Virus record (IMG/VR): IMGVR_UViG_3300026488_000010
Strand: one strand, 5' to 3'
Length of the DNA stretch: 64,000 bases
DNA from: a virus
Positions 2,089-61,143 of the stretch are shown here, in pieces. The notes under the pieces are model-generated. The model saw nothing but the letters and a program-made list of their open reading frames with translations. It searched no databases and was not told the DNA's origin. How positions within the stretch are numbered: position 1 is the stretch's first letter; each line of letters begins with the position of its first letter. The translations under genes and the position numbers were made by a program.

Positions 2089-4085
2089 TAATCTCCTATA
2101 TCTAATTCTTCAGTCTTTTTCTTTTTATCAGATTGAAATATAAATCCAGAATCATTAATATCTTGATCCATCCATGATTTATCGTGAGATGTATTAGATC
2201 CTGTCCCTATTGACAAATCAATAAAATCCATCATTCTAGAAGGAGTCAATGCAAATGCCTGTATTTCACCCTCGATTGATAAATCGCCTGATTTAATCAT
2301 AAGTTTTCTAACATATAAACAAAAGTTAAAAGCCATTGTAACATCATCATGTTGTCCACGCATCGCTTCTATTCTACCATTAACCTTTTGCTCCAAGTTT
2401 CTAAGTTCATCTATTAACTCATCAGAGTGAAATAATTCTGGATGAGCATTAACTTGATTCATAAGTTCTGAGAACATTTGATCACGTTTACCTGCTCCCA
2501 TCTTACCCGCATTTGATGTATATAAACCATATACAAATTCACCAGTAGGCATACCTTTCGCAGTCTTAATTTCTTCTTGCCAAACATATGACTCATAATC
2601 AAAATCATCAATTAAGGGGTCATTATAAATCAATTCTTCTACAGTTTCTTTACCGATCGAGTTACGCTCAATGATTACTCTGAGGAACTCTTCATCGATG
2701 TTATAGAGCATGTTAAGCGCCTTTATAGCAGCTTTAACAACTGATGCTAATCTTTTAACGATACTGAACTTACCTTTCCATACACCAACCTCTTGACCAG
2801 AAGATGCATGAATTAAAGACATTGCTGAATAATCCGAATTGACACCAGCAGACATTGCTGTATCTACACCTAAGAAATATAATTCATTCGGTAATAGTTT
2901 ACTAAATAACTGCATTTCTTGACCAAACGGTAATTGTAGAGTTTCCCAAGCTTTTTTTGGGATCAGTTTTGAAATAATATCATCATTAAAAATACTTGTA
3001 GAGCTTCCTAAAAATACTAGATCCAGCTCTTGATTGATCTTACGTTGGTTAAAGTTAAGTTCTTTACATTGCTTATTATACCATGCTTGATCACGATGGG
3101 TATTATTCCATAAAATTTTCATACTAATAAAAGCATTCTTTTCAGGGTCTTCCATAACCTTTTCATAACCGTCATATAATGTTTTAGTTTCATAATCATA
3201 TATATCATCAAACTTAACAGATCTTTGTAAAATATTATAGAACCAGTTTCCACCTGCACCATTAGGTGTTGATACCGCGATCATACATGTTGGATAACCA
3301 TTTTGTTTTGCAAATATTTTTGCAGTCGATATAGATGGTTGCATAGCACTATAAACTATATCCATATGTTTAATAAAGGCTGCTTCATCTAGAATAATGA
3401 TTGATCCTGAAAGACCACGACCTAGAGTATCAGGATCAATAGAACCACTAACAAACATTGTATCAAACATTGATTTATTTTCTAAGTGAAAGAATGTTGT
3501 ACGTTCAGCTTTACCTTTCATAGGAACTTGCATCCACTTTGGAAGTTTTGACATCATTTCTTTTAAACGAGATACTGCATCCTTACCACGATTACTATCT
3601 AGTGTAAGGAATGCTATCTTGATTCCAGGAAAGAAAATCATACAATGTAATGCATATAATAATGCTAAAGTTGTTTTACCAATTTGTCGAGAACTAATAA
3701 AACTAACATTATCTTGTAACTCAAATAATTTAAACAATAGTCTAAATTTATTTGTACTCTGCCATTGCTCTGATGAACCCATATGAATGAATCCACCTGT
3801 TACTGGAGTATATGCAAATTTTTCTACCCAATACAATGGTGACATTTTACACTTCATCCATTCAATCATCTGTTCATTTGCAGACATTTCATTATTATAA
3901 TAATCTTCACCTAAGTATTCTGGAACCTTGATGCGAGGAGTTTTTACTAACTCAGCTTTTACTAAATTATCTGCTTCCTTGATTATCTCTTTAACTGATT
4001 CAGGTGTATCCTTAACGGTAACATCTTTCTCTTCAACAGTATATTGTTCTCCTGAAAATTGCGGCTTTGTTATAGACCAACTCAT
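2073..4085 (-). CDS. terL: Terminase large subunit (T4 gp17-like)
   Basis: Walker A SRQIGKT, GRGLSGSIIILDEAAFI (Walker B), STPNG coupling motif, nuclease LGVDTA and HDDVTMA. Confidence 0.95.
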   Translation of the reverse strand: MSWSITKPQFSGEQYTVEEKDVTVKDTPESVKEIIKEADNLVKAELVKTPRIKVPEYLGEDYYNNEMSANEQMIEWMKCKMSPLYWVEKFAYTPVTGGFIHMGSSEQWQSTNKFRLLFKLFELQDNVSFISSRQIGKTTLALLYALHCMIFFPGIKIAFLTLDSNRGKDAVSRLKEMMSKLPKWMQVPMKGKAERTTFFHLENKSMFDTMFVSGSIDPDTLGRGLSGSIIILDEAAFIKHMDIVYSAMQPSISTAKIFAKQNGYPTCMIAVSTPNGAGGNWFYNILQRSVKFDDIYDYETKTLYDGYEKVMEDPEKNAFISMKILWNNTHRDQAWYNKQCKELNFNQRKINQELDLVFLGSSTSIFNDDIISKLIPKKAWETLQLPFGQEMQLFSKLLPNELYFLGVDTAMSAGVNSDYSAMSLIHASSGQEVGVWKGKFSIVKRLASVVKAAIKALNMLYNIDEEFLRVIIERNSIGKETVEELIYNDPLIDDFDYESYVWQEEIKTAKGMPTGEFVYGLYTSNAGKMGAGKRDQMFSELMNQVNAHPELFHSDELIDELRNLEQKVNGRIEAMRGQHDDVTMAFNFCLYVRKLMIKSGDLSIEGEIQAFALTPSRMMDFIDLSIGTGSNTSHDKSWMDQDINDSGFIFQSDKKKKTEELDIGDYLIGL

Positions 4086-9523: not shown

Positions 9524-11386
9524 TTAGAATGTTCCACCATCGATATTAGCAACTAATTCTTCTACTTTAGTACTTGAATATACTGTACTTGTACTTGCAG
9601 TTGTATCATCAATAGATACACCAGCACCACCAACTAATGAATAAATTTTATCAGCTGATAAAGTTTTAGTAACATTATCATCTGCATCAACAATCGTATC
9701 ATCAATCAGAGCTGTAATTTCTGTTTGAACTTTATCCAATGACCAAGTTTTAGTTGAACTGGTAGTTAATGAATCATCAATTTCTGTTTTAGAATCAATT
9801 GCTGATTTAGTTTGAGAAACTGACCATACTTTATCAGTTGCGGTTGTACTTGCATCATCAATTAAACCAGTTACATCTGTATCAATTGCTGATTTAGTTT
9901 GAGAAACTGACCATACTTTATCAGTTGCGGTTGTACTTGCATCATCAATTAAACCAGTTACAGCTGTATCAATAACTGTATCAGTTTGTGAACTTGAATA
10001 CACTTTATCTGTAGCAGGGGTTGCATCATCAATTAAACCTGATACTGCTGTACCGATATTTGAATCGATTTTATCACTTGAATATGTTGTTGTAGTAGCA
10101 GATGTAGTATCATCGATAATATCTGTACCACCGACTAATGAATCGATTTTATCACTTGAATATGTTGTTGTAGTGGCAGATGTAGTATCATCGATAATAT
10201 CTGTACCTGTTGCAGCACGTAAATCACCAGTTTGAATATTGTTATCATCCCATGTAGCTGAACCTTCAGCTTTTGTTTGAAGACCAATTGTAAGAACACC
10301 TGTTGCAGAATCATACGCATCAGCAGCAGCATTTCTTTGAGTACCAGCGCCCGTTGAACCTGTTGAACCAGTTGAACCTGTTGAACCTTGAGCACCACGA
10401 ATATCAATTGTTGTATATCCTAGACCATCATCAGATTCAAATACTAGTTTATGTGTTTGACCTTGAACAGCACTTTCTGTTCCTGCACCAGAATCAGAAC
10501 CTTCAGTTAATACAGAAACACCTGTCCAACCAGCAGACACAGCACCTAATTCATTTTTAATTTTATCTACTGACCAAGTTACAATTGTAGATGTGCTTTG
10601 AGCATCATCAATTTTACCATCTGCATATGCTTTAGTTTTTGAACTTGACCATAGAGTATCAGTTGCAACAGCAGCATCATCAATAGCAGCAGCAACAGAT
10701 GAATCACCACCCTCAGCAGCAATTGAATAAATCTTATCAGCAGATAATGTTTTATCTGTGATATTATCAGCATCAACAATTGTATCATCAATCAGTGCTG
10801 TAATTTCAGTTGCAATTTTATTCGCTGACCATGTTTCATTTGTAGCTGAGCTTGCATCATTAATTAATGCTTCTAATCTAGTTGTTGTGAAGTATAAATT
10901 TGTAGTACCTTCAGCAACATCATCAGTAGTTAAAGTAATTGCGCCTGTTTTAGTGTTAACACTTGTTACAACATCAGTTGGTGTTGCAAGCACAGTCCAA
11001 TCTGTTACATCACCAGCAGAACCACCATTATGTACAAAAGTTTGACTAAGATCTGTACGAATTGCTACATCACCTTCTTCAGCAGTTAATGCAGTCATTG
11101 CAGCTTCATCAGCAACAGCAGTTACAGCAGTTAATGCTAATGCTGGTAATTGTGCAGTAGGAATGAGTCCACCAGCATCAAGTTCAGCTACACCACCTGC
11201 AGCGCCTTTAGCAGTTGTTAATATATAATCACCTGTTGCTGCAGCGGTTGCTGATACACCACCAGCTGTTGAGCCATCACCGATAAATAATTTCTTTTCG
11301 TCTGTTGTCCATATTAACTCACCATTTGCTGGTGTTATATTTAAACGATCTGCTTCGAGACCTCTTCTAATCTGAATTTTACCCAT
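9524..11386 (-). CDS. Tail fibre: Mtd_N-like head, short collagen-like G-x-x run, many IDD...(W/Y)SS.K repeats
   Basis: IQIRRG...GELIWTTDEKKLFIGDGSTAGG; GAQGSTGSTGSTGSTG; DNA-level 87-bp and 78-bp duplications at about 9795-9960 and 10065-10205. Confidence 0.8.
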   Translation of the reverse strand: MGKIQIRRGLEADRLNITPANGELIWTTDEKKLFIGDGSTAGGVSATAAATGDYILTTAKGAAGGVAELDAGGLIPTAQLPALALTAVTAVADEAAMTALTAEEGDVAIRTDLSQTFVHNGGSAGDVTDWTVLATPTDVVTSVNTKTGAITLTTDDVAEGTTNLYFTTTRLEALINDASSATNETWSANKIATEITALIDDTIVDADNITDKTLSADKIYSIAAEGGDSSVAAAIDDAAVATDTLWSSSKTKAYADGKIDDAQSTSTIVTWSVDKIKNELGAVSAGWTGVSVLTEGSDSGAGTESAVQGQTHKLVFESDDGLGYTTIDIRGAQGSTGSTGSTGSTGAGTQRNAAADAYDSATGVLTIGLQTKAEGSATWDDNNIQTGDLRAATGTDIIDDTTSATTTTYSSDKIDSLVGGTDIIDDTTSATTTTYSSDKIDSNIGTAVSGLIDDATPATDKVYSSSQTDTVIDTAVTGLIDDASTTATDKVWSVSQTKSAIDTDVTGLIDDASTTATDKVWSVSQTKSAIDSKTEIDDSLTTSSTKTWSLDKVQTEITALIDDTIVDADDNVTKTLSADKIYSLVGGAGVSIDDTTASTSTVYSSTKVEELVANIDGGTF

Positions 11387-29281: not shown

Positions 29282-29545
29282 CTATCTCCCATCTACTGTA
29301 TTGTTTGAATTACCATTAAGTAAATAAACATTACCATCGTTATTTGAACTAGGTATGATTACAACATTACCAGTACCTGTGCCGTCAGATGGTGGCACAT
29401 ATGGATCTACTGGAGCCGTTGATACTTCCGGAAATACAAAAATACTTTTACCATATGTTCTATTATTATATTTATCTAATAACGCTTCATCCGTATCAGC
29501 ACTATACTTATTTCTATTTGCGCCTGATTCTAATACTCTTGCCAT
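29282..29545 (-). CDS. Small hypothetical protein (paralog of 21513)
   Basis: NNRTYGKSIFVFPEV. Confidence 0.65.
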   Translation of the reverse strand: MARVLESGANRNKYSADTDEALLDKYNNRTYGKSIFVFPEVSTAPVDPYVPPSDGTGTGNVVIIPSSNNDGNVYLLNGNSNNTVDGR

Positions 29546-30285
29546 TATTTTTCTCCATTTTGTACTATATATTCTTTTAAATTATATTCTATTGAGTCAA
29601 AGTGATCTGCAATGAAATCACCTGACCAATCATGCACTATTTTTATCTTCGCGGATATTGTATCAGCAAATGGTCTAATTCCACCCAACATCGTAGCTGG
29701 AAATTCTAAGAATGCATAACTTGGCCCTTTATCTCCAATAACTGATTGTGACATTACAAGCTCTCCATCAATTCCAAATGATACAGGAGTATCAATCACA
29801 ACAATGTCTCGATACACTTCGAGTTCACCATTACTAGGATTATAATAATAAAATAATTCTAGTTCAAAATTTCCAGCCCAAACATCTTTCTTTACTGATG
29901 TTTGTGTTGGTTGAGGATCACTCATTGGATCAACTACCCCATTATACACTATTGTGAAATCAACATATACTTTAAAAGGTAATGATATAACACCTTCATT
30001 CAATACAGTATCTATAAGGTCCATAGGTATTGCATCAGTTATTCCAAACTTTGGATAAACATTATATCTAAATGATGAATATCTAACCATATCAGTTATA
30101 TCACTATCGATTGTTACAAATGATGTCGGGGCCTCTTTTAATTTCATAAATGTTAGAATACCTTTTGATAAATAACATATCTCTTCAGTATCTGTAGTAT
30201 ATGCTAATTCACCTTCTATTGGTGGATCTAGCTCAAGTTCAGCTTTAAGTTTTCGTCTTAAAATGATTCCAGAATCTGCCATCAT
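29545..30285 (-). CDS. Mtd_N-like domain protein
   Basis: SGIILRRKLKAEL..DPPIEGELAYTTDTEE. Confidence 0.75.
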   Translation of the reverse strand: MMADSGIILRRKLKAELELDPPIEGELAYTTDTEEICYLSKGILTFMKLKEAPTSFVTIDSDITDMVRYSSFRYNVYPKFGITDAIPMDLIDTVLNEGVISLPFKVYVDFTIVYNGVVDPMSDPQPTQTSVKKDVWAGNFELELFYYYNPSNGELEVYRDIVVIDTPVSFGIDGELVMSQSVIGDKGPSYAFLEFPATMLGGIRPFADTISAKIKIVHDWSGDFIADHFDSIEYNLKEYIVQNGEK

Positions 30286-37538: not shown

Positions 37539-38579
37539 CTAATCAAATATAAGTAGTTCTGTTATAGATAATGGCCCAAATTTAAAATTTGCAAGTTTAT
37601 CTTTCAACGGAAAGATAAACGTATCTAAATCATCATTTAACATTGTGTCTTCAACTAACGTAATCTCTTCCCATAATATATTTGGGGTATTAGAAGTTGA
37701 ATCATCAACAATATATATTGCACATGCTTTATTTATAATCTGATCTCTTAATGATATAGGAACTTCACAAGTGTTGTTCTCTATATTAAAATTAGATTCT
37801 GCTAATATATTTGCCTGTTTAAATTTTTGTTGTCTATCAGAGAAAACATCATTATCCATATCAATAAGAATCGGTGTTGTTTCTGTCTGTAAATTTTCAA
37901 CGATTTGTATACCATTGATAATCCGATTATCTATTGTTTGATTCCCAATAACATTTGGAACTCTTAATCTAATTTCTAAACCAATATCTAAACTTATTTC
38001 ATCTTCTACATTTTTTGTTTTTGTTGTTGATGTCACTTTAAATAGTGGCTCTAAACCAAACCATGCGAATCCTTCAGTTACTTGATCAGTGCTTCTATAA
38101 TGAACGCCATTCATATCATGAGATGGTTCCCAATTAGTCATATATTTATTAATATTAATAAAAGAATTATATCTATAAGCATAGAACATAAAATCTTTTG
38201 GAAACGCGCTGATAACATGATTATGATAATCAAGTAAATCAGCTAATGATGCTAAGTTTATTTTTAATTGCACCTGCATCGTAACCCATTTGAAGTCACA
38301 TAATATGGTTTCTTGTAAATCATGATTATTTGCGAGAACTTCAACTAACTCATCAGAGTGAGCACCGCCGATATAACGAAAGAATGCTTTATTATCATCA
38401 ACAGATATATCTGTTAAATTGATCATACACATAGGATATTCTTTAACATGTTCTTGATAAAGTTTATAATTTAAGAATGCTTTGTCTCCATAATTAAATT
38501 GCCAGTGTTCAATCTCAGGGAAATGTGAAGCAATAAATTTTTTAAAAGATTTTAAAAAATCTAAGTAATGACCATTCAT
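37539..38579 (-). CDS. Possible tail terminator (T4 gp15-like)
   Basis: YPMCMINLTDIS and VTMQVQLKINL..L.DLLDY..ISAFP loosely follow the gp15 pattern. Confidence 0.4.
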   Translation of the reverse strand: MNGHYLDFLKSFKKFIASHFPEIEHWQFNYGDKAFLNYKLYQEHVKEYPMCMINLTDISVDDNKAFFRYIGGAHSDELVEVLANNHDLQETILCDFKWVTMQVQLKINLASLADLLDYHNHVISAFPKDFMFYAYRYNSFININKYMTNWEPSHDMNGVHYRSTDQVTEGFAWFGLEPLFKVTSTTKTKNVEDEISLDIGLEIRLRVPNVIGNQTIDNRIINGIQIVENLQTETTPILIDMDNDVFSDRQQKFKQANILAESNFNIENNTCEVPISLRDQIINKACAIYIVDDSTSNTPNILWEEITLVEDTMLNDDLDTFIFPLKDKLANFKFGPLSITELLIFD

Positions 38580-38993
38580 TTATATCTCCTCTAACCGTTG
38601 ATTAATATTATATAAAGTTGTTGAACTAAAGAATAAACTAAAATCATCTTCTCCCTTATACTTTCTATGAAGAACCATGATCGTATCAGTTCCTAACAAT
38701 ATCCTATAGACCAATAAAGCATTATCAACTGTACCAAACGAATATGTTTGCCACTTATTAATCTCTTTAATTTTTATATGATTATCTTCAATAATGAATA
38801 ATTCATTATCTTTATTTTTATCATAAACTTTATCCAAATCTCTTATAAAATTTAATTTTAAATTATAATGTTCATTTAGATATTTATAATTTCCAGATAA
38901 TCTATATGCGTGATCTATAGATGATAAACGCATATAGACATATGGTGATGTTCTATGAGATATTGGAACCTTATACGACTCATAATTTTCCAT
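38580..38993 (-). CDS. Hypothetical protein
   Basis: 137-aa ORF with AAGGA SD. Confidence 0.7.
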   Translation of the reverse strand: MENYESYKVPISHRTSPYVYMRLSSIDHAYRLSGNYKYLNEHYNLKLNFIRDLDKVYDKNKDNELFIIEDNHIKIKEINKWQTYSFGTVDNALLVYRILLGTDTIMVLHRKYKGEDDFSLFFSSTTLYNINQRLEEI

Positions 38994-39009: not shown

Positions 39010-39039
39010 AAAACGATCTTTATCGATAAAGATCGTTTT
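39010..39039. repeat. Perfect 30-bp palindrome at the end of the RNAP gene
   Basis: AAAACGATCTTTATCGATAAAGATCGTTTT. Confidence 0.95.
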
Positions 39040-42000
39040 TATATATCAGATATTAAACCTGCGCCTTTAAAATATGTCTTAACCATATCTAAAGATGTTA
39101 AATCAGCTTTATCTATTTCGACATCCAATTCATCTGGGATTTCATTGGTTCTTAAAATAGTGTTTAACATTTGTCTCTTTGCTTTACCGGCATCTGATTT
39201 CATCGCGTGCATCTCTTTAATAAGATTATATGGTCTTTTAGATAATAATGAATTAATATCATATAAACCAATTTTAGTTGCACCTGTTCCATCTTTAGTT
39301 CCTGAACGTCCTTGACCAGTAATCCAATTTTTACCTGTTGCTAATGAACCACGTGTACTAGACATTGCTTGTGGAAAATGTTCCAACATATTGATTGGGA
39401 GAATCCCAACGGGAACTGATCTTTGAGTAACAATACCATTATTTTCAACAATTTTAACTTTTTCGTTTAAAGGTATACCCAACACATCTGCTGCTTTTTG
39501 TATATCAGCCATTTTAATTTGATTCTTAAATGGTGGAACAATTGCTGGAAATGCTGGATTATTTAAAGCATCTGAATTATTAATAATTTTAATAATTTCA
39601 GCATTTGGCTTCTTAAAAAATTCATCTAATTGATTAATGATCATATGATCATCAGTTGCGTCTAGATTTGCAAAAACCTCTTTAACTATTTTCTTTATAC
39701 CTAACACTTTTTTAGATTTTGCTAAATCCATAACTGCTAAGTTCAAAAAGTATATAACTTTTCCTAAGTACATTGATAATAAAATTGATGGATTCTTTCT
39801 AGAAATAATTGATAATGGTGTACCAATAAATTCAATTTTTAAACCAGTTTCTTCTGCTATTGGTTCTTGACCATGTTTCATAATATATTGAACTGTACCT
39901 TTACCACCAGAACTGGTTAGAGTAAATTTTGAACCATTAATTACAGGGTTATGTCTTTCAATATAAACCTCAATAACAGCACCTTCAAATTCTTCACCAT
40001 TGAGTTTATGTCCACCAATTGTTAACGTTTCTACATTTTCTAAATGTCCAATACAATCAGCAGCACCTAAACCTTTAGTATCTTCTTCAATACCTTTAAA
40101 TTGTTTTAAACATGCATCTTGTTTATTTTGAATCTCTTCAGTTACTTTTTTATGTAAAGATAAAATTTGTTTATTTATTTTACGAGTATTTAATTTAACA
40201 ACAACTTCTTTAATAACACCACCAGGTGATAAATATGATTTAGTTAAACCATCAACAACTAATCCGATCATTAGAGAATCATCTTCTTCATTGTCAGAAT
40301 CATCTATAAATGTTTCCGATGTATTAAATTTAATTAACACATCTCCAGCGTTCGTTTTTGAACCTTGATTAAGATTAATATCTTTTAACATTGCATTATC
40401 TGGAAATTTAATAGTTATTTTTTGCAAAATTTTGTTTGAATATTTTGTATCTAATGTATCAGATACAACCCAACCATCTTCATAATTCATTCCCATATAA
40501 CCCATTTCAGCAACTACTAGGTTTTTACCGATAGCGAGCTTCTGATGCTTCAAAGAATCAGTTACTGCTATCATTTGACCTTCTTCAATCTTTTGTCCTT
40601 TGTTTATAAGAACGTTGTAATTAGTTGCTATGTATATACCGCGCTTAGTACGCGATTTAACTGGCTTTATAGAGAAGGTTTCTGTTTCACCGTCATTGTA
40701 TTTGACTTTAACAATTTCATCTGTTACAGCGCTTATAACACCTGCTTTACGAGCCTTCTTCACAAATCTATCAGAAACTAAATGTGGAACATATGCTTCA
40801 AACCCTGTCTGAACCAATGCAACATCAGGTTTCTCAAGTTGTATAAACTGAGCTGTTTGTTGATTACCCATTACTCTACGAGTAGTGTCATCATATTCAA
40901 AGAATGGTGATAATGATTCAACAGGACTCAGATTCTCAAAAGGATTAGAATCGTTAGAGAAAGGCTTCTTAGAAATGTTTCCAAATCTATCATCAATCAT
41001 TGCACCGTTAGTAAGCGTTTGATTAATACCAATACCACCATACTCATTAGTTGCGGTTGGAGCCATTACACCAAAATATGATGGATTTAAATCTCTACGA
41101 TTAAGAGTTACTTGTGATTTAAGAGTATTACCAATACCCGTCTTAGTAACTTTTAAACTTAGCATCATCTCTTCTAAAGGGTTTAGTGTTTTAGTATATT
41201 GTAATATACCAGCATCTAAAAGATTTTTAATAATAAAATCATTTTGCATATATATTTTTTCATTTGATAAATGCTTTCTTGTTTTAAATTTAGAAATTGC
41301 TTGATGCATCTGATTATATGCAACTGATGTGATTGTCTCAGACATTCTCAATCTATAATTATCTAAATCATATTGTGATTTAGCTGATCGAGTACCTAGT
41401 AGTTCTACCATTTCGTTTGAGAATATTCCAGCTAGATCAGTACTTTGACCAGCATCTTGAAGTATTTTTTTAGTCGAACCATCAATAAATTTATACTCTA
41501 TATCATATAAATTCTTTGCAAATCTTGCACCTTGTTTATGTTCGATAATATCTAACATTGTTTGAGCCAATGCTTCAATTGTTGGCTCAAAATCTCTATC
41601 TTTTATTTTATAAGTGTTAAGACCATTTGCATAATTCCATTGCTCTGTTGTGTTTGGGTACAAACATAAATATTGTCTCTCATCATTATGTTTAAAATTC
41701 ATTACAATTCCAGCTTCATTATCTTTACGATCCTTAAACTGATATTTTAAATTCATTATAGAAAACGCTTTCTTAGAAGTACTTCTATTGATTAATAAAA
41801 ATACAGATAATGGAACATTCTTTCCCATAATTCGCATTTCATAAAATGGTTTTGAACTCTTTGATTTTTTTAATACATCATCACCTGATAATTTATTGTT
41901 TATCTTATTATAAATATTAAATACAAAATCATTTAATAAATTTTTTGAAATATGATTTATATCAGAATCTTCTGTTTTATAGAAGATGTCATTTGAACCC

Positions 42001-42149
42001 TCTCTAAGGTAAGCATATTCAATAGTCTCTGTAACATTCCCTAAACCTGGTTTAGAACATGTATAGAATTGAAGAACTTGAACTTGTTCTCCATCTATGT
42101 TTTTTGTTATTTCATTTTTGAAATCTATAACATAATTGTATTTTGCCAT
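39039..42149 (-). CDS. rpoB: Phage multisubunit RNA polymerase beta subunit, main/C-terminal part
   Basis: RRVMGNQQTAQ (cf RALMGANMQRQA), VQTGFE, GMNYEDG, NGSKFT..SGGKG, FIGTPLSIISRKN (cf NPLGVPSRMN), GATKIGLYDI (cf GGQRFGEME). Confidence 0.9.
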   Translation of the reverse strand: MAKYNYVIDFKNEITKNIDGEQVQVLQFYTCSKPGLGNVTETIEYAYLREGSNDIFYKTEDSDINHISKNLLNDFVFNIYNKINNKLSGDDVLKKSKSSKPFYEMRIMGKNVPLSVFLLINRSTSKKAFSIMNLKYQFKDRKDNEAGIVMNFKHNDERQYLCLYPNTTEQWNYANGLNTYKIKDRDFEPTIEALAQTMLDIIEHKQGARFAKNLYDIEYKFIDGSTKKILQDAGQSTDLAGIFSNEMVELLGTRSAKSQYDLDNYRLRMSETITSVAYNQMHQAISKFKTRKHLSNEKIYMQNDFIIKNLLDAGILQYTKTLNPLEEMMLSLKVTKTGIGNTLKSQVTLNRRDLNPSYFGVMAPTATNEYGGIGINQTLTNGAMIDDRFGNISKKPFSNDSNPFENLSPVESLSPFFEYDDTTRRVMGNQQTAQFIQLEKPDVALVQTGFEAYVPHLVSDRFVKKARKAGVISAVTDEIVKVKYNDGETETFSIKPVKSRTKRGIYIATNYNVLINKGQKIEEGQMIAVTDSLKHQKLAIGKNLVVAEMGYMGMNYEDGWVVSDTLDTKYSNKILQKITIKFPDNAMLKDINLNQGSKTNAGDVLIKFNTSETFIDDSDNEEDDSLMIGLVVDGLTKSYLSPGGVIKEVVVKLNTRKINKQILSLHKKVTEEIQNKQDACLKQFKGIEEDTKGLGAADCIGHLENVETLTIGGHKLNGEEFEGAVIEVYIERHNPVINGSKFTLTSSGGKGTVQYIMKHGQEPIAEETGLKIEFIGTPLSIISRKNPSILLSMYLGKVIYFLNLAVMDLAKSKKVLGIKKIVKEVFANLDATDDHMIINQLDEFFKKPNAEIIKIINNSDALNNPAFPAIVPPFKNQIKMADIQKAADVLGIPLNEKVKIVENNGIVTQRSVPVGILPINMLEHFPQAMSSTRGSLATGKNWITGQGRSGTKDGTGATKIGLYDINSLLSKRPYNLIKEMHAMKSDAGKAKRQMLNTILRTNEIPDELDVEIDKADLTSLDMVKTYFKGAGLISDI

Positions 42150-42211
42150 AAATATTCCCTTTAATTTTTATTTTTCAGCATATTGCGACAGTGTTTCAGA
42201 TATGATTCAGT

Positions 42212-43804
42212 TTATGCTGATATAGTCATCTTACTATATTTAAAATCATGAAGATCAGATATACCATATTTTAAACTTATAGTATCTTTAGTTGCATTAT
42301 CAAAATTTTCAAGCTTAATTTTATTCAGTGCTTTCAATTGTTGTACAAATTTATCTTCAACATCAACGAATGAATTACTTGCAGATAGTTTTGTATTTTT
42401 CAATTTAAGAGATGACACACTAAAGTGTGTATAAAATCTTACAAGATTTGGTGCTACTTTTTGAATAGGCTTTGGAAATAATTGATTAATCAAAATGTAA
42501 TTATTTCCTCCAAGTTTTATATATTTTCCTTGAACGGGAACAGGAATTCTAAAACTTATAGTATATGGTTTATTAGTAGTTGCTCCAAAATCTTTGTGTT
42601 TGACTTTGATTTGAAACTCTTTATATCTATTTTTATTATCATCAACTATTTTTTTCTGAACAGATACGATCTCAATATCAACATCTGGATCATTACCTAA
42701 TGTGCTATGTATCAGATCTTCGATTAAATCATCTATATTCTCAGTTAATTCTAATCGCTGCTTATCGTAATTTCCAACCTCGTCCATTCCAACAATCTTT
42801 TGATCATTAAATGCACCAGTCTGTTTGATATTTAAAGATATATTACCATTGTATTTTCTATTAATATTTTTAGATAATTTTTCAACCGCTTCAGTGGTTG
42901 AACCTTTTTGATATAATGCTTGTAATTTCTCTTCAAATGTTCCAGTCAAAGGTAAAGTATTCAGATGTTCTTTAATCTTCTTTTGAATATCTTTAAGTTC
43001 TGAATCTTTAGCTTTAGATGATGATGTTACTAGATCATCAATTAATTCTTTTACTGATGTTTCTTTATTTGATGCTATTTCAGATTCTTCTTCTTCTGAT
43101 ACAGCATTTTTAATATCTTTATCTTTGGTCATATTTTTCAAAACCATATTTAAAATATTTCTTTGAAATTTTAATTCATCTTCTGAAGAAGATGAAGGAA
43201 TAGCTATAGGAAAATATTTCCCATCAATAAAATAAATAATACCATCTAAACGTGTTTTAATTTTTCCAGCGTTAAGTTTATTTATATAATTTAATAGTTG
43301 AAGCACATCAGCATTTGCGGCATCTAAATTACTTTCTGAACTGATAAATAAATAATTCTTTCTTTCAGGATCATAATCTTTAATTACCGATTCTATTAAT
43401 TTTAATAATTCAAAAAATACTTTTTTTTGAGATCTAGACTTAGCTGTCGATAATACGTCTGATATCATACCAGACATATCAAAAACATTAGTTCTCTCAG
43501 GCATTGTTTGTTTTGATGGTACTCTAGTATAATGAAAGTTTGGCATATCTTTTTTAAGTTCTAAAAAGTATTTTTGTGAACTTAACTTTTTCCCTAAGAA
43601 ATTTGAAATAATTCCAGGTACTGTAATTTGGTGATAATAACCTTTGATTTGAGTACTTAAGTATTTTTGTAACGCTTTATGTGCAACCCCCTGTGAAGAT
43701 GCTTCAGGAGCAAAGAAAATATTTGCTCCTACCTTTTCATCATCCCAAAAGCGAACATTAGGCAAAGGTTGTTTATTCTTTATAAATTTAGTAACTGATA
43801 CCAT
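42212..43804 (-). CDS. RNA polymerase beta N-terminal part fused to an extra N-terminal region
   Basis: C-terminal SFRIPVPVQGKYIKLGGNNYILINQL matches the beta N-terminal IP.MT..GTFIING.ERV.VSQL motif; adjacent to the main beta gene. Confidence 0.75.
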   Translation of the reverse strand: MVSVTKFIKNKQPLPNVRFWDDEKVGANIFFAPEASSQGVAHKALQKYLSTQIKGYYHQITVPGIISNFLGKKLSSQKYFLELKKDMPNFHYTRVPSKQTMPERTNVFDMSGMISDVLSTAKSRSQKKVFFELLKLIESVIKDYDPERKNYLFISSESNLDAANADVLQLLNYINKLNAGKIKTRLDGIIYFIDGKYFPIAIPSSSSEDELKFQRNILNMVLKNMTKDKDIKNAVSEEEESEIASNKETSVKELIDDLVTSSSKAKDSELKDIQKKIKEHLNTLPLTGTFEEKLQALYQKGSTTEAVEKLSKNINRKYNGNISLNIKQTGAFNDQKIVGMDEVGNYDKQRLELTENIDDLIEDLIHSTLGNDPDVDIEIVSVQKKIVDDNKNRYKEFQIKVKHKDFGATTNKPYTISFRIPVPVQGKYIKLGGNNYILINQLFPKPIQKVAPNLVRFYTHFSVSSLKLKNTKLSASNSFVDVEDKFVQQLKALNKIKLENFDNATKDTISLKYGISDLHDFKYSKMTISA

Positions 43805-43813
43805 TATAATTCC

Positions 43814-43857
43814 TTTAGTATATCTTTAGTATATCTTTAGTATATCTTTAGTATATC
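43814..43857. repeat. 11-bp tandem repeat TTTAGTATATC x4
   Basis: Read directly in the 5' UTR of 43804. Confidence 0.9.
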
Positions 43858-43920
43858 TTATTAAGTATTTGTTTACTTAACACTTTTAGTTCATTGTGTT
43901 TTTTATGTCTGAAATCAAGC

Positions 43921-43948
43921 ACAAGGAAATGGGTCATAGACCCATTTC
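43921..43948 (-). terminator. Hairpin + CTTGT terminator-like element
   Basis: Stem GAAATGGGTC/GACCCATTTC containing the TGA of 43934, then CTTGTGCTTGATT. Confidence 0.65.
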
Positions 43949-53291: not shown

Positions 53292-54203
53292 TTAATTTGA
53301 AACTAAGGAATATCCATATGCATTTGAGAACTCTTTGGGGTTCTTATTCCATACTACATTCTTCATACCAATAAACCCTTCTAGTAGATAAGAACCTCCA
53401 CCTGCAATTAGCACAGTGCTAGCAAATTGTAAAGTTTTCTTTTCAGATACTAAAACCGAATTGATAAGTTTTTGTACGAATTTGCCTTTAAGATCTTCAA
53501 TTTTTGCTGGGATTGCTTCTTGAATTTCTCCACCAAGAGTTAATTCACCGTCCATGAAGATCTTTAATGCTTCTTGTTCAGAAAAAGGCATACCATATGC
53601 ACTTTCTAAAAAGTTTGAAAATGTTTTCATTATACTTACAACACCATGACCAGGAAACCCTTTCATGCGGGTTTGCATTGCTTGGCCTCTTTCAAAATAT
53701 AAAAAGTTAATAGTTCTGTAACCAATATCAATTACACATGCATCTTTAGGATGTTCTCCAGGTGCATCATCTTTTTGAGTAATGTATGCATAATATGCAC
53801 CTGCACCTTGAGGAGCAACAACCTCACAAGCAGTTGCAATTGTTTCATCATTTACTTTAAGAAACTGCAATCGTTCTTGAAATTCTGCACGTTTAGACCA
53901 ATCAGTTAATGCTAATCCAGTTATTAACTTTACGTCACCAGCTATTCCCAATTTCTTTAAAATATGAAATACCATTAGTGGTCCAAATTTATCTAGGAAT
54001 TTATAATCAGTTGTTGTAAAAGCTTCATCAGTTGCTGCTTCACCTACATAATATTGCTCACCCTCAAAATCATAAACACTTGATTGGCCAAATTCAATAC
54101 CCGCATCGTTTGCGAATGATATAGCGGTTGGAACTTTATAAAATTCACCATTAAACATAATCTTCGCTGCTGAGTATCCTAAATCTATAATAATTTTATT
54201 CAT
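53292..54203 (-). CDS. parM: ParM/StbA-family actin-like ATPase
   Basis: IIIDLGYSAAK (phosphate 1), YYVGEAA, PQGAGA, VIDIGYRTIN (phosphate 2), LIAGGGS, NAYGY. Confidence 0.85.
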   Translation of the reverse strand: MNKIIIDLGYSAAKIMFNGEFYKVPTAISFANDAGIEFGQSSVYDFEGEQYYVGEAATDEAFTTTDYKFLDKFGPLMVFHILKKLGIAGDVKLITGLALTDWSKRAEFQERLQFLKVNDETIATACEVVAPQGAGAYYAYITQKDDAPGEHPKDACVIDIGYRTINFLYFERGQAMQTRMKGFPGHGVVSIMKTFSNFLESAYGMPFSEQEALKIFMDGELTLGGEIQEAIPAKIEDLKGKFVQKLINSVLVSEKKTLQFASTVLIAGGGSYLLEGFIGMKNVVWNKNPKEFSNAYGYSLVSN

Positions 54204-55084: not shown

Positions 55085-57748
55085 TTAACCAAAATCAAAC
55101 CCTTCGTAACTAAATTCACTTGGATATTGTGTCTTAATATTGTTGACAAGTATATGTAACATATCTGGGAAGAAATTCATAAACTGTTGTGTAAACATGA
55201 AGTGCGCTTGAATGTCTTGATTCTTAGATTTGTCAATTCTTGTAATTCGTCCAAGTGATTGAATTACGGGAACCTTCCCAACAATAAGAGAACCGAAGAT
55301 GATTGCAGATAAATCTGATTTATCAAAACCTGCAGATAATAATTTAAAATTTGATACTAATGTATCCTTCGCTTTCATTATCTCACGTTCAGTACGATTA
55401 TCAGCAATTGTCCAAGATGTTTTTAAATCCAGGGTTGGAATAGTTGCTTGAACCTTAGCGATATCTTTTAATATTGGTTTAGTCAAACTATATTTATCAT
55501 CCTCTCCTTTGAGCAATTTTAATGCGACACATTTCTTTCTTTTAGGAAATACTTCAAAATAATGATCATAGTATGATTGTACTTGTTCAGGCGTTAAATA
55601 TTCTTTTGATTCATCTAATTTCTTTTTAGTTTCACCAATTATGACACCAACGTCGATTCCTCGTCTTTCTAATACAGCAGCCATTCTACGAACCATTTTA
55701 TTAGTTGCAAATAATATTGCTGTTTTATGACCATCTTTTATTCTATATTCAACCCAGTTAGCAATCCATTCAAAATAAACTTCTTTAGTTTCTAATATCA
55801 TATTATATGTTGCCATGAAACGAACATAATCAGTTCTTGAAAAAACTAATCTTTGAATTTCTTTCTCTGTGAACTCGATTATCCCATTATGTAAATTAAT
55901 TTTGGGTACAAGATTTTGATGATCTGATTTATATAATATACCACCAGTGTTATTCATAAATAGGAATTCATTGATACCTACTCTATATGGTGTAGCAGTC
56001 ATTGATAATACATTATCTGTTGAAAACATACAAGCGGTTTTAGAATAACCATCTGATGCATTACCAACATGCGCTTCATCGTATATAACTAAGCCAAAAG
56101 CGGAATACAATTCTACTAATATATTAATATCAATATTTTTTAATTGTGCATATAATGATTGAATTTTGGCGACAACTATATCTTTTTCAAATACACATTT
56201 TTTAATTAATGCATTTATATCTGAACCTTGAGCAATACCTATATCATCCTTCTCAAGATTTGTAAATTCAATAATTGATTCTACAAATTGTCCTTCTAAT
56301 ATATCATTAGGTACAATAATTAAAGATTTTGTTCCTACTAATTCAACAGTCTTTATAGCTACTATCGAATTATGAGTCACTGTAAAATCTCGAGTAATAT
56401 ATAAGTGATCTTTCGCGTCTATTGTAATACATCTAGAATTTTCTTGATAATCTAATTTTTCAATATTAACTATTGTTTTTGTATTTTTTTTAGGGTTGAT
56501 ATTAATCATAAATTCATATGCTTCATGACCTATACATATCTCACCTTTATGTTTAAACTTTGGTTCAGGTTTTATACGAATCTCATTCGCATAAATACCT
56601 AACGATCTGACAATATGTTGTAATTGATTAATTAATTTTTTTGATGAGCTATATAAAATCTTTGAATTTTTAGATTGATGATATGAATCAGTTAATAAAT
56701 ATGCTCTTAAAAATTCTTTACGTTCGTCTACTGATGCGAAAATATAATCATCAGGTATGGATTTATCGATTGATAATTTATCCATTAATTTGTACGATTT
56801 TAATAACTGTTTTAATTTTAAACTCGTTATTCTATATGAGTATTTATTAATTATAGAATATGTTGCATCAGAATCAAATTCTAAAATTTGTGAAAAAACC
56901 TCTTTAAACACATCACCTCTTAAATCTGCAAATGTTATTGCATCTCCTCTAAAACTACCATCTGCAATAAGTGCGCCCATTGCAAAAGATTTTAGTTTTA
57001 AATTTCTTTTTGTGTATTGAACTTCGTCGCATAAATTAATTTTATATTTATATTCTTGTTGGTAAGTTCCATATTTTGTTTTATATCGACCACTTTTATA
57101 ATTTTTTAAAATTTTAGATGTATCTATAGTTTCCCAACCTTTATTTTTATTGGTAATTTTATGTCTATTTTTAACGGTCCATAAGTGATCAATACCACAT
57201 TTTGTATATGTTCCATCTTGGAACGTTATTTTATAAACATCGCTTATTCCATGTTCATGAATATGTGTGACTTTTGTTGGTGTTCCATTTTTTCCAACAA
57301 TAAATGAACCTATTTTGAGTTCTCCCATTGTGACCCAACCATTAGGTGTAAGGATCGGTTCGCTGTATGGTTGTTGCTTACCGAAACCAGGTTGAGCAAC
57401 TATAAGACCATTTATAGAACCTTTTAACATAGCATCTTTAATCGCTTTAAACACTGGTATTTGCTCTTTTCTCGCTTCGATTGATGTTACCATCTTCTTT
57501 AACTTTACTGGAGCAATTTGCGCATCTTCTTTAGCTAAGTTATGTCGGCGTAAGATTTCAGCACCAACTTTATCAATCGCTAACTCACTATGATTATATT
57601 GCACAAAGAATTTTGGCAATACTACACCATAACCAACATCGAATACACCTAAGTCGCGGTCATCATATGGTATTGGTTTTTCATATTTATTCCATATACT
57701 GGACTGGGATTTTAAATATTCCCATTCAGTTTTGTAAATTATATCCAC
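55085..57748 (-). CDS. SF2 helicase (UvsW-like) containing an intein
   Basis: Walker A QPGFGK|S, DEAH, MTAT, SAGFD, QSLGRITR. Confidence 0.9.
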   Translation of the reverse strand: MDIIYKTEWEYLKSQSSIWNKYEKPIPYDDRDLGVFDVGYGVVLPKFFVQYNHSELAIDKVGAEILRRHNLAKEDAQIAPVKLKKMVTSIEARKEQIPVFKAIKDAMLKGSINGLIVAQPGFGKQQPYSEPILTPNGWVTMGELKIGSFIVGKNGTPTKVTHIHEHGISDVYKITFQDGTYTKCGIDHLWTVKNRHKITNKNKGWETIDTSKILKNYKSGRYKTKYGTYQQEYKYKINLCDEVQYTKRNLKLKSFAMGALIADGSFRGDAITFADLRGDVFKEVFSQILEFDSDATYSIINKYSYRITSLKLKQLLKSYKLMDKLSIDKSIPDDYIFASVDERKEFLRAYLLTDSYHQSKNSKILYSSSKKLINQLQHIVRSLGIYANEIRIKPEPKFKHKGEICIGHEAYEFMININPKKNTKTIVNIEKLDYQENSRCITIDAKDHLYITRDFTVTHNSIVAIKTVELVGTKSLIIVPNDILEGQFVESIIEFTNLEKDDIGIAQGSDINALIKKCVFEKDIVVAKIQSLYAQLKNIDINILVELYSAFGLVIYDEAHVGNASDGYSKTACMFSTDNVLSMTATPYRVGINEFLFMNNTGGILYKSDHQNLVPKINLHNGIIEFTEKEIQRLVFSRTDYVRFMATYNMILETKEVYFEWIANWVEYRIKDGHKTAILFATNKMVRRMAAVLERRGIDVGVIIGETKKKLDESKEYLTPEQVQSYYDHYFEVFPKRKKCVALKLLKGEDDKYSLTKPILKDIAKVQATIPTLDLKTSWTIADNRTEREIMKAKDTLVSNFKLLSAGFDKSDLSAIIFGSLIVGKVPVIQSLGRITRIDKSKNQDIQAHFMFTQQFMNFFPDMLHILVNNIKTQYPSEFSYEGFDFG
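56369..57376 (-). mobile_element. 336-aa intein with LAGLIDADG domain; class 3 signature, Gln1
   Basis: QQPYSEPILTPNGW...DHLW...GALIADG...RCITID...VTHN|S, inserted in Walker A. Confidence 0.9.
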
Positions 57749-58096: not shown

Positions 58097-58471
58097 TTAA
58101 TCATTTAATGTTATTGGTGAAAATAATAAATTACCAACAACAAGTTCATTTGGATCCAATAATTCAGTTGATTCAATAGTTAATATATCATTAACTATTC
58201 TAATACTAAATGGTTGAATATCAACAGTTAATATTTTATTTACATCAATTTTTGATACAATATTAGATTCAATCATTTTTGATTGAATCTTTTTACCTTG
58301 AATCTTAATAGTAATCATTGAATCTGTTCTAAAATTTATTGGAACAGTATTCATATTTAATATATTAGCAGTTTTATCTGCACTAGGTAATATACTAAAT
58401 AACATAAATGGATTATCATTAGTTGGTTTATATAATATGTTTTCTTTTAAAGCATTTTTTATTGGATACAT
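58097..58471 (-). CDS. Hypothetical protein
   Basis: 124-aa ORF coupled to the upstream gene. Confidence 0.65.
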   Translation of the reverse strand: MYPIKNALKENILYKPTNDNPFMLFSILPSADKTANILNMNTVPINFRTDSMITIKIQGKKIQSKMIESNIVSKIDVNKILTVDIQPFSIRIVNDILTIESTELLDPNELVVGNLLFSPITLND

Positions 58472-59205
58472 TATTTTAACTCCTCAAAATCTCCAGATAT
58501 AACTTTTTCTAAATCGGTTTTTTCGGTTGTATATGTTCTAGTAATGTTATCAACAATAACATCTTTAGTATAACCATAATTAAATCCTACACCAGCATTA
58601 AATTTATGAGCAGAATCTTTTGAATTTAAAGCATTCCCTTTTGAATATTTTTGATTTTTAGTCATTCGTGTAGGTTCAAAACCATTATCAGTATATTCAC
58701 CATACAATACTGTTAATATTGTTTCAATATGTTGCATTCGAATATTTGATGTATTTAATAATTGATCATAAATTGCAACGATGTGTTTTGGTAAGTCACC
58801 ACTCAAATATTTAATACGATTTTCAAATAGCTTATCGAGAATCATAATATCTGTTGCGCTTGATTTTGTCATTGCGAATGCAATAAGATCACCTTTTGAA
58901 AAATAATAAGTGCTAATAGTTCCTTCTTTCTCAACGGTGTCAGATATTACAAAATTGATATTAAATGGGAAATATAATTGAACTTCATCATTTTCTTCAG
59001 GTACTTCAATATTTAATATTCCAGGAATATTAATGGAGCCTACTAATGATTCATTATCATCTTCACTTATATCAACAAGTTCTTCATCTTCTATTTTAAA
59101 ATCTGATTCATCAATTCTGATAATGATATCATACTTTGCATAAAAATGATTCTTCTGCACATCTAAGTATTTTAAGACTTTGTCTTTCGAGCTCAATTTT
59201 GCCAT
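58471..59205 (-). CDS. RNA polymerase beta-prime C-terminal fragment
   Basis: NIRMQHIETILTVL (cf INDKHIEVIVRQM); KGNALNSKDSAHKFNAGVGFNYGYTKDVI (cf GITKASL.T.SFISAASFQETT.VL). Confidence 0.6.
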   Translation of the reverse strand: MAKLSSKDKVLKYLDVQKNHFYAKYDIIIRIDESDFKIEDEELVDISEDDNESLVGSINIPGILNIEVPEENDEVQLYFPFNINFVISDTVEKEGTISTYYFSKGDLIAFAMTKSSATDIMILDKLFENRIKYLSGDLPKHIVAIYDQLLNTSNIRMQHIETILTVLYGEYTDNGFEPTRMTKNQKYSKGNALNSKDSAHKFNAGVGFNYGYTKDVIVDNITRTYTTEKTDLEKVISGDFEELK

Positions 59206-60843: not shown

Positions 60844-61029
60844 TCATGATGGACAGCCTCGTATTAGATGATGAGCTGGAGGCATATTAAATTGTCCATG
60901 AATTGGGCAAATAATACACACTTTAGTTAACCTATTAACGTAGTCAACTTTTGAATAATCATATTTATCATTATATCTTATATTAGATTTATGGATAAAT
61001 AAATTCTTAACCTTATCTGTTTTTTTCAT
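60844..61029 (-). pseudogene. Truncated homing-endonuclease Zn-ribbon repeat (DUF723-like)
   Basis: KYDYSKVDYVN..TKVCIICPIHGQF...HL.RGCPS*, with no nuclease domain following. Confidence 0.6.
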
Positions 61030-61143
61030 ATTATATCCAATAACTTGAAATGTTATCAGAGCTACCAGTATATGCCCCATACACAACCATTGATGATATA
61101 ATTATTACTAAAAATATTTTTAATTTTAAACTCATAATATAAC

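Follow-up and report, generated by a model that had tools for sequence, protein, structure and literature searches.

Two adjacent genes of an uncultured giant phage probably encode one virion-type RNA polymerase beta subunit, cut in a linker near the start of its beta-homologous part

The RNA polymerases (RNAPs) of jumbo phages occur in pieces and assemble without alpha and omega subunits. In the viral DNA studied here (hereafter the window, i.e., the whole stretch of 64,000 nucleotides that was analysed), two neighbouring ORFs lie on the minus strand at 39039-42149 and 42212-43804, as the original prediction had stated, and they raise three questions: (i) whether both belong to a single beta subunit; (ii) to which type of enzyme this subunit belongs; and (iii) what is the role of the long region that precedes the beta-like part. 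With a probability of about 0.8, the two ORFs encode a single beta subunit in two polypeptides, and this subunit belongs to a multisubunit RNAP that the phage itself encodes and that is of the virion-packaged type (vRNAP). This is the type present in phiKZ-, phiR1-37- and AR9/PBS1-like jumbo phages; what is seen here varies a known system and does not amount to a novel kind of enzyme. The locus comprises:

39039..42149, minus strand: beta body P0001 (1036 aa), with the remainder of the lobe, the fork, the hybrid-binding/DPBB domain and the C-terminal clamp-side part.
42150..42211, minus strand: fission spacer of 62 nt. AAAGGGAA precedes the ATG of the body gene by 7-8 nt, the two ORFs do not share a frame, and a TAA 18 nt upstream of that ATG closes the frame of the body gene.
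42212..43804, minus strand: beta N-piece P0002 (530 aa), with an alpha/beta domain (1-225), a helical region (240-370) and then the N-terminal conserved block of beta.
42377..42691, minus strand: beta-homologous block in P0002 (residues ~372-476), with the invariant motif G-G-N-N...Q-L-F-P-x-P.

The body, P0001, matches the Pfam family RNA_pol_Rpb2_6 (38.1 bits, E 1.3e-9; cut-off 23.4), as well as Rpb2_3, and the PHROG families 3148 (E 1e-47) and 14872 (E 9e-43), both labelled 'RNA polymerase beta subunit'. Its C-terminal third matches PHROG families 3295 and 3233. Bacterial beta chains in the PDB match P0001 at E 2e-25, residues 400-566 corresponding to residues 662-822 of E. coli beta. The conserved E-D and G-x-K-G motifs of the catalytic cleft, located in the hybrid-binding/DPBB domain, are present in P0001, where N-Y-E-D (555-558) and G-G-K-G (748-751) are invariant in an alignment of 27 homologues. 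P0001 is an RNAP beta homologue whose catalytic motifs are intact. In terms of the cultured phages, it corresponds to the C-terminal half of beta-N fused to beta-C.

Regarding the N-piece, searches of Pfam, PHROG and the PDB sequences found no match for P0002, and its family profile returned only coiled-coil noise from the PDB sequences. By hhalign, residues ~325-476 could be aligned with the conserved N-terminal block found in jumbo-phage vRNAP beta-N proteins, with E-values of 2.9e-6 (LPJP1), 1.5e-5 (pPa_SNUABM_DT01), 7e-4 (phiR1-37) and 1.8e-3 (phiKZ gp178); the top alignment of the block to E. coli beta falls on the expected motif, at residues 133-155, and is not significant (E 0.44). Given this hhalign alignment, the original prediction was right that only the last ~120-150 aa of the 530-aa ORF are beta-like. 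When the P0002 model was compared with BFVD by Foldseek, the best matches were jumbo-phage RNAP beta proteins of 921-1463 aa (E 2e-10 to 6e-5); RNAP beta was not returned when the whole model was compared with PDB folds (Foldseek, VIA). The first domain of this model is confident (pLDDT ~90) and its C-terminal part is not (pLDDT 35-80).

The beta block of P0002 is preceded by ~370 aa without family match. This region, put at ~400 aa and thought to be special to this phage, is not so, since an extension of 410-565 aa precedes the block in all the cultured vRNAP beta-N proteins compared (phiR1-37, LPJP1, phiKZ, DT01 and JD-Fnp1). The first ~320 aa give long Foldseek alignments to those extensions, only with low TM-scores, and no hhalign alignment to them. 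Residues 10-234 have weak fold matches in the PDB of a generic alpha/beta NTPase-like kind (SRP54/FtsY, Z 6-7), other matches being helical-bundle noise; because a Walker A motif is absent, the N-terminal domain is not called an NTPase. In the ESM Atlas, residues 1-235 have no usable match. Across the N-piece family, conservation of the N-terminal region begins at about residue 25-60.

In related metagenomic phages the two pieces form one protein of 1540-1710 aa and, in consequence, the arrangement is a clean gene fission in a linker. Residues 1-523 of P0002 correspond to residues 1-517 of P0040, a fused homologue of 1555 aa (49% identity, E 7e-153), and residues 8-1032 of P0001 to its residues 531-1552; nothing has therefore been lost at the junction. 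The fused proteins P0060 and P0073 show the same collinear match. The linker that is cut shows little conservation, and the cut follows the first conserved block of beta by ~55 aa. The 121 homologues comprise 84 split, 31 fused and 6 partial proteins; the bodies start at the same place, and the N-piece family has two forms (~510-620 aa and ~1480-1710 aa). On a tree of 115 relatives, the split or fused state has changed at least seven times at this same point. The uncultured beta family as a whole includes at least 148 proteins, on contigs of up to 291 kb; one relative, P0027, is 95% identical and comes from a 65-kb contig. Within the family the pieces are arranged in several ways: (i) in the closest long contig (G001), the gap between them measures 2.2 kb and holds two homing-endonuclease genes; (ii) in L038, they overlap by 17 nt; (iii) in L039, a 102-aa ORF with neither similarity to the linker of the fused protein nor a Pfam match lies between them; and (iv) in G002 and G003, they are ~80 kb apart. 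Probably, and in part demonstrably, it is mobile homing-endonuclease genes, or else small changes that break the frame, that have produced the cut and keep producing it at a tolerant linker.

The division of the cultured phages is placed elsewhere. Their beta-N proteins, of 1393-1484 aa, invariably stop near residue 800-820 of P0001, where P0001 is continuous; here, phrog_3148 ends at 789 and phrog_3295 covers 711-1016 of the same chain, so the betaN|betaC junction is uncut. The claim of a phage beta from a multisubunit RNAP, divided close to where its beta-homologous part begins, is supported. As for the split being unusual, the claim survives in that cultured phiKZ/AR9-type phages do not use this cut site, and is not supported in that the RNAP was said to differ from phiKZ/AR9. 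Actually, every relative with a name is a vRNAP beta-N subunit, from phiR1-37 (g099), PBS1, Listeria LPJP1, JD-Fnp and phiKZ-like phages and, since the nearest ones belong to that group, the enzyme is not a lineage apart from it.

A further candidate subunit is encoded 3'-ward in window coordinates:

58471..59205, minus strand: P0026 (244 aa), probable small beta-prime C subunit of the vRNAP, with an N-terminal SBHM-like beta domain and then helices with L-F-E-N-R and H-I-E-T-I.

The P0026 ORF is conserved, and its family profile matches phiR1-37 g148 (E 4.8e-5; hhalign 3.1e-5), which belongs, together with phiKZ gp176, to phrog_2926 (g148 E 8e-49). In BFVD, Foldseek matched P0026 to a 232-aa protein (E 5e-7) and to jumbo-phage proteins of ~233-248 aa. 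The top three PDB matches of its N-terminal domain are trigger-loop insert (SI3) domains of beta-prime (Z 5.3-5.9). The order of its motifs, LFENR followed by HIETI, fits beta-prime; the alignment to E. coli beta-prime is not significant (E ~0.47), the C-terminal half of the model has low confidence, and the direct comparison with phiKZ gp176 gave only E 0.17. P0026 itself has no PHROG match, its profile has none in the phiKZ or SPN3US records, PDB or Pfam, and the ESM Atlas yielded no usable match. A PBS1 match of the profile was discarded, as it fell in a frame with stops beside a helicase gene. P0026 is probably a distant relative of the phiKZ gp176/SPN3US gp244 family, the small beta-prime C subunits of vRNAPs, and the remote match to this family makes the proposed beta-prime C-terminal fragment at 58471 plausible. 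The catalytic part of beta-prime is indeed absent from the window, as had been noted: D[FY]DGD occurs in none of the six frames, and the beta-prime pieces of relatives gave no tblastn match there. In the contig G001, which is 65% complete, the N and middle pieces of beta-prime were not found.

When the complete records of phiR1-37 and pPa_SNUABM_DT01 were searched, nothing but the virion beta-N was matched (E 6e-32 and 9e-15, respectively); phiR1-37 g099 is annotated as a structural protein, and the best tblastn matches are annotated as virion-associated or structural. Furthermore, a long N-terminal extension is a vRNAP trait and a separate small beta-prime C protein is specific to vRNAPs (PMC5105663, PMC7598289). 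Packaging of the beta pair in the virion is thus most likely, the label 'virion' being drawn from homology and gene context. That the pair might instead belong to a non-virion enzyme (nvRNAP), or to a single all-purpose phage RNAP that is not packaged, is unlikely. Relatives G002 and G003 do carry two beta and two beta-prime sets and, because of this paralogue set, an assignment by homology could be crossed; besides, P0001 matches bacterial beta in the PDB and not any phage chain. Nevertheless, the second beta of G002 is a 675-aa piece of beta-C type with a different family pattern, and both the exclusive match to virion beta-N and the two vRNAP traits speak against this alternative. It is very unlikely that the split does not exist in the protein, either because ribosomes bypass the 62-nt gap and make a single chain or because of an assembly error. 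Bypass would find a GCA before the stop codon TAA (take-off) and another after the ATG (landing), and joining would give a linker as long as that of the fused homologue. But Ala is common as second residue, and the body ATG is preceded by its own ribosome-binding site, AAAGGGAA, in the spacer. Moreover, the same split recurs in 84 proteins from many samples, and the pieces are separated by 2.2 kb and two genes in G001 and by ~80 kb in G002 and G003.

The N-terminal region had been proposed as a possible supplier of promoter specificity. The case for a built-in promoter-specificity module of ~370 aa draws on the fact that jumbo-phage vRNAPs have no known sigma-like factor (PMC7598289), and on the conservation and confident folding of the region described above. 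This role is nonetheless improbable: in phage 201phi2-1 the homologous subunit loses its first 275 aa as a propeptide, a sign that the mature enzyme can do without them, although they stay in place in SPN3US (PMC5694885), and residues 10-234 of P0002 show only the generic NTPase-like fold and no DNA-binding fold. Most likely, the region would help to bring the enzyme into the head or to handle it once packaged, and would not select promoters. A more speculative idea, which we regard as rather doubtful, is that the recurrent cut is not neutral: a separate 530-aa piece could let the packaged RNAP thread the tail in smaller units and be rebuilt in the host, the N-terminal domain acting as a handle for head docking and reassembly. 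If this were true, the family would be a natural series of alternative ways to dismantle a multisubunit RNAP for ejection.

Taking the two ORFs as one vRNAP beta subunit, the following sequence of events can be proposed. An ancestral gene of ~1550-1700 aa would have encoded the vRNAP-specific N-terminal region (~370 aa) followed by full beta, and in the present lineage it would have been cut in the linker. The 530-aa piece would retain the N-terminal region and the start of beta, and the 1036-aa piece everything else, including what is a separate beta-C in the cultured phages. Each piece would be translated from its own start, and both would reassemble through the contacts of the single chain. 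P0026 and beta-prime pieces whose genes lie beyond the window would complete the enzyme, which, by homology, may be made late, loaded into the head and ejected, and then transcribe early genes.

The beta pair is flanked by the following features:

43921..43945, minus strand: hairpin followed by CTTGTGCTTGAT, the putative end of the upstream transcription unit (read from sequence).
43862..43873, minus strand: promoter-like motif AACAAATACTTA, which precedes the 530-aa ORF by 58 nt.
43813..43858, minus strand: about four tandem copies of the 11-nt unit AGATATACTAA in the 5' leader (read from sequence).
38580..38993, minus strand: 137-aa ORF directly downstream of the body, without family match (51% identity in L001).
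37539..38579, minus strand: 346-aa ORF that abuts the 137-aa ORF, without family match (Pfam, PHROG).

The window holds nine copies of the motif AACAAATACTTA where 4.0 would be expected (nine were attained in 2 of 100 shuffles), and eight of these copies are on the gene strand. We take it to be an AR9-late-type motif, its promoter role being assumed from the AR9 late-promoter consensus. The next promoter-like motif after the 346-aa ORF is at 37483. Both the 137-aa and the 346-aa ORFs are kept beside beta in a 74% relative, and the beta genes presumably adjoin head-protein-like genes.

In general terms, four groups of known systems can be compared with this locus. The split large subunits of cellular RNAPs (cyanobacterial gamma/beta-prime, archaeal B'/B'') likewise consist of two reassembling polypeptides, but the subunit and the positions differ; archaeal B is divided midway along beta rather than ~55 aa beyond its first conserved block (PMC7598289).

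The mReC, metagenomic Caudovirales with multisubunit RNAP (PMC7481178, Weinheimer and Aylward, 2020), are uncultured large phages with beta and beta-prime genes as well as T4-type terminase and baseplate genes, and some contigs have several beta/beta-prime matches. Their beta proteins score 92-103 bits on Rpb2_6, compared with 38 bits for P0001; the contig numbers of the present relatives are absent from the mReC tables, and the mReC paper does not describe splits (PMC7481178). The group is marked by a T4-type TerL (PF03237), a gp23-type capsid and RNAPs that cluster in one clade. In the window, the TerL gene (2073-4085) scores 19.6 bits against PF03237, below the cut-off of 22, and a capsid gene was not identified.

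AR9 and PBS1 are uracil-DNA Bacillus jumbo phages that have a multisubunit RNAP (msRNAP) and lack chimallin; phiR1-37 and PBS1, the nearest named relatives of the present beta, are both msRNAP phages without chimallin (10.1101/2023.02.24.529968). The beta pieces of PBS1 match residues 445-802 of P0001 (29% identity), and P0002 has its second-best structural match in a PBS1 protein of 921 aa. Homing endonucleases interrupt RNAP genes in both PBS1 and the present family, and AACA-N6-TA-like motifs in the window are a further likeness to AR9/PBS1. The PBS1 beta is, however, cut at other points by endonuclease genes, and no HD domain was seen in the phage studied here.

Finally, the phiKZ-like vRNAP beta (phiKZ gp178 and gp149; phiR1-37 g099; SPN3US beta-N/beta-C) is the best match in sequence and structure, although identity is only 22-25%. 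Both share an extension of the 400-560-aa class, probably a small beta-prime C of ~240 aa of the phrog_2926 type and, presumably, a gene position among head genes. But while the phiKZ-like subunit is cut inside the hybrid-binding domain, that of the present phage is continuous there and is cut ~55 aa after the N-terminal block instead. The vRNAP kit (N-terminal extension and probable small beta-prime C protein) is extended to a divergent lineage. In its family, one beta gene is found undivided, or divided into pieces that are separated by a short spacer, have overlapping reading frames, flank homing-endonuclease genes or are dispersed across the genome, and the classical betaN|betaC junction is uncut. 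These states provide direct comparative material on the idea that mobile endonucleases drive the splits and on which surface linkers of beta tolerate a break.

The original prediction of an RNA polymerase (RNAP) beta subunit cut near its N-terminus holds: the feature is real and correctly located, and it involves the first two of the following genes, the third being considered further below.

39039-42149 (-): P0001, RNAP beta homologue (beta body), 1036 aa; Pfam, PHROG and PDB matches
42212-43804 (-): P0002, N-terminal piece of beta, 530 aa, 62 nt from P0001
58471-59205 (-): P0026, probable beta-prime C, 244 aa; profile, fold and family links

In P0001, the Pfam domain Rpb2_6 exceeds its curated cut-off (E 1.3e-9) and Rpb2_3 covers residues 317-384. 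The PHROG "RNA polymerase beta subunit" families 3148 (E 1e-47) and 14872 (E 9e-43) span residues 65-809, and families 3295 and 3233 span residues 711-1033. Bacterial beta chains of solved structures also match (E 2e-25), with the fork, E/F and G-x-K-G regions in the expected order. Since all 27 aligned homologues carry N-Y-E-D (555-558) and G-G-K-G (748-751) without change, the enzyme containing P0001 looks active.

P0002 has no match by sequence in Pfam, PHROG or PDB. By hhalign, the first conserved block of jumbo-phage beta-N proteins corresponds to its residues ~325-476, which align with Listeria LPJP1 443-557 (E 2.9e-6), pPa_SNUABM_DT01 533-619 (E 1.5e-5), phiR1-37 g099 410-542 (E 7e-4) and phiKZ gp178 479-613 (E 1.8e-3). 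In the best hhalign alignment with E. coli beta, which is non-significant on its own (E 0.44), the invariant G-G-N-N...Q-L-F-P-x-P lands on residues 133-155. Compared with predicted viral structures, the AlphaFold model of P0002 (mean pLDDT 72; about 90 for residues 1-225) is closest to RNAP beta proteins of jumbo phages, 921-1463 aa long (E 2e-10 to 6e-5), in alignments that are as long as the query and have low TM-scores. Because ~55 residues trail the block before the stop of P0002, and similarity to g099 in P0001 begins only at residue 68-97, the cut lies in the variable stretch separating the first conserved block from the next; we infer that this is near the protrusion/lobe boundary of beta.

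A search with P0001 gave at least 148 relatives, whose lengths form two classes, ~1015-1060 aa and ~1540-1710 aa. In the fused metagenomic homologue P0040 (1555 aa), residues 1-517 correspond to P0002 1-523 (49% identity, E 7e-153) and residues 531-1552 to P0001 8-1032 (63% identity); two further fused homologues, P0060 and P0073, show the same two-piece correspondence. The linker from the last shared motif of P0002 to the first of P0001 measures 13 aa in fused and 12-14 aa in split proteins. As both pieces together cover the fused homologues and the linkers are about alike in length, P0002 and P0001 are one gene cut in two within the linker, with nothing missing; their predicted association rests on the fused homologues. 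P0001 is initiated separately from P0002, because it has its own AAAGGGAA in the spacer, 7-8 nt 5' of its ATG, lies in a different frame, and has that frame closed by a stop 18 nt upstream of the ATG. When a profile of 23 P0002 homologues was run against 1.84 billion representatives, it detected 119 proteins, again in ~510-620-aa and ~1480-1710-aa forms; forms of 850-1290 aa were also present and suggest further cut points.

Ahead of P0002, the upstream unit closes with a hairpin, and the motif AACAAATACTTA lies 58 nt upstream of the gene; the window has 9 copies of it where 4.0 would be expected, a count reached in 2 of 100 shuffles. About four tandem copies of the 11-nt unit AGATATACTAA (43813-43858, -) occupy the P0002 leader from this promoter-like motif to the ribosome-binding site. 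P0001 is followed by two conserved ORFs with no assigned function, and the phiKZ neighbourhood is similar (gp178, gp177, gp176 and then the head protease). The terminase is weakly T4-type (19.6 bits, under the cut-off).

Among 121 homologues, 84 are split, 31 fused and 6 partial, and most bodies start within ~10 residues of one another. A FastTree built from 115 bodies after exclusion of the junction columns is quick and unrooted and so leaves the direction of change unassigned; on it, the split/fused state changes at least 7 times, versus 27 with shuffled labels. The fused P0040, P0046 and P0054 branch among or below the split proteins of the window's own subclade.

Junction between the beta pieces in the window and in its relatives
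Window: 62-nt spacer
L038 (69% relative): 17-nt overlap
L039 (291-kb contig): additional 102-aa ORF
G001 (74% relative): 2.2 kb, two ORFs
G002 and G003 (42% relatives): N-piece ~80 kb from body

Both ORFs in the G001 gap belong to the homing-endonuclease family (phrog_3339, E 4e-24; phrog_559, E 1e-56) and also match the PHROG families "homing endonuclease" and "intron encoded nuclease". Mobile introns and endonucleases have been proposed as the source of split RNAP genes (PMC7598289), and an intron endonuclease targeting phiKZ gp178 has been reported (PMC11620839). The junction forms fit such elements as the splitters; alternatively, the endonucleases may occupy an already existing gap.

One of the beta-prime genes of the 42% relatives (L006/L008/L016, G002 20.8-28.7 kb; same region in G003) is broken within the catalytic double-psi barrel: a zinc-finger piece of 512 aa stops just short of the metal-binding motif, a second piece of 686 aa starts with H-D-Y-D-G-D, and they are separated by two genes for HNH homing endonucleases (phrog_3339, E 2e-92 and 1e-82). 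In G001, a 785-aa ORF (L026, 51.3-53.6 kb) without a PHROG match shows a weak match to positions 317-389 of the P0002 profile (E 5e-4), which may mark the N-piece of the second polymerase's beta or be due to chance.

As predicted, the catalytic part of beta-prime lies outside the window: D-[FY]-D-G-D is absent from all six frames, and tblastn with the beta-prime pieces of G002 and G003 gives no match there. P0026, previously read as a beta-prime C-terminal fragment, is retained as a probable, if remote, member of the beta-prime C family. It is kept as a ~240-250-aa protein in 31 relatives and is also found in G001-G003. Its profile matches g148 of phiR1-37, a structural protein of the virion with 232 aa (E 4.8e-5; hhalign E 3.1e-5, residues 7-108), and phrog_2926 has both g148 (E 8e-49) and phiKZ gp176 (E 2e-101) as full-length members. 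The latter is homologous to SPN3US gp244, the 240-aa fifth subunit of the virion-packaged RNAP (vRNAP), which represents the end of beta-prime (PMC5105663). The P0026 model (pLDDT 61; residues 1-110 good) is closest to a viral protein of 232 aa (E 5e-7), and also matches jumbo-phage proteins of 233-248 aa. When the model is compared with 48,161 solved chains, the three best matches are SI3 (trigger-loop insert) domains of chloroplast and cyanobacterial beta-prime (~80 residues, rmsd 3.0-3.1), at Z 5.3-5.9, and the next is the E. coli beta-prime G/G' insert, at Z 4.4, all of these Z values being low in absolute terms. A helix past the N-terminal domain contains L-F-E-N-R, followed by H-I-E-T-I; the best alignment with E. 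coli beta-prime (E 0.47) coincides with the latter motif. Membership is graded probable and remote because direct matches to gp176 are weak (E 0.17).

Other genes of the window include (i) an actin-like (ParM/Alp) protein (53292-54203, -; Pfam ALP_N E 4e-12, MreB-like_C E 1.6e-9), with a homologue near the beta genes of the 291-kb relative (L039 904-1800), and this clade may have an actin-like filament where phiKZ-like phages have the tubulin PhuZ; (ii) an 887-aa helicase (55085-57748, -; ResIII/DEAD, phrog_16), probably intein-containing, in which residues 342-392 form a LAGLIDADG domain and residues ~66-390 give intein-like PHROG matches; (iii) a 78-aa ORF (60844-61080, -) that looks like an endonuclease remnant, being similar (phrog_681, E 5e-8; phrog_559, E 3.5e-7) to the repeated module at the N-terminus of phage HNH/homing endonucleases; and (iv) two probable tail-fibre or receptor-binding proteins (9524-11386, - and 29545-30285, -), each starting with Mtd_N, the N-terminal domain of the major tropism determinant (E 6.6e-10 and 1.4e-3).

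The original prediction also took the combination of this polymerase with T4-like genes to differ from phiKZ/AR9, a view not supported by tblastn against 50,697 phage records, in which all 237 matched records were jumbo phages with multisubunit RNAPs. Coverage was widest for phiR1-37 g099, the Fusobacterium JD-Fnp phages, pPa_SNUABM_DT01, Listeria LPJP1, Staphylococcus SA1 and PBS1. In the annotation, g099 (1393 aa) is a structural protein and the DT01 beta-N gene is virion-associated; in searches of the whole phiR1-37 and DT01 records, the virion beta-N gene was the sole match and the non-virion beta was not matched. Judged from sequence, P0002/P0001 belong to an enzyme of the phiKZ/AR9 kind and most likely of the virion type. 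The nearest named relatives, phiR1-37 and PBS1, are multisubunit-RNAP phages without chimallin (10.1101/2023.02.24.529968).

The 400 aa of unrecognised sequence in P0002 are a common vRNAP beta-N trait and no peculiarity of this phage, because the cultured phages (phiR1-37, LPJP1, phiKZ, DT01, JD-Fnp) all have 410-565 aa ahead of the conserved block. The suggested role in promoter specificity is disfavoured, given that 201phi2-1 reportedly cleaves the first 275 aa off its vRNAP beta-N subunit as a propeptide; SPN3US retains this region, and the five vRNAP subunits assemble and then enter the prohead (PMC5694885, PMC5105663). By analogy, propeptide removal and assembly ahead of prohead entry would favour head incorporation over promoter choice.

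Cultured beta-N proteins (1393-1484 aa) all terminate near P0001 residue 800-820 and are followed by a separate beta-C, whereas P0001 is uninterrupted there; because it runs through these residues, its lineage has the classical junction fused and a new one near the N-terminus. The beta subunits of vRNAP and of the non-virion polymerase are cut at different places, neither like archaea (review, PMC7598289), and the P0002/P0001 junction is a third. Overall, the window encodes the beta subunit of a virion-type jumbo-phage RNAP, cut at a new and recurrent point, and probably a beta-prime C subunit as well. Like phiKZ-type phages, G002 and G003 have two beta and two beta-prime sets, and the small beta-prime C protein is a vRNAP-specific trait of which P0026 is the probable counterpart.
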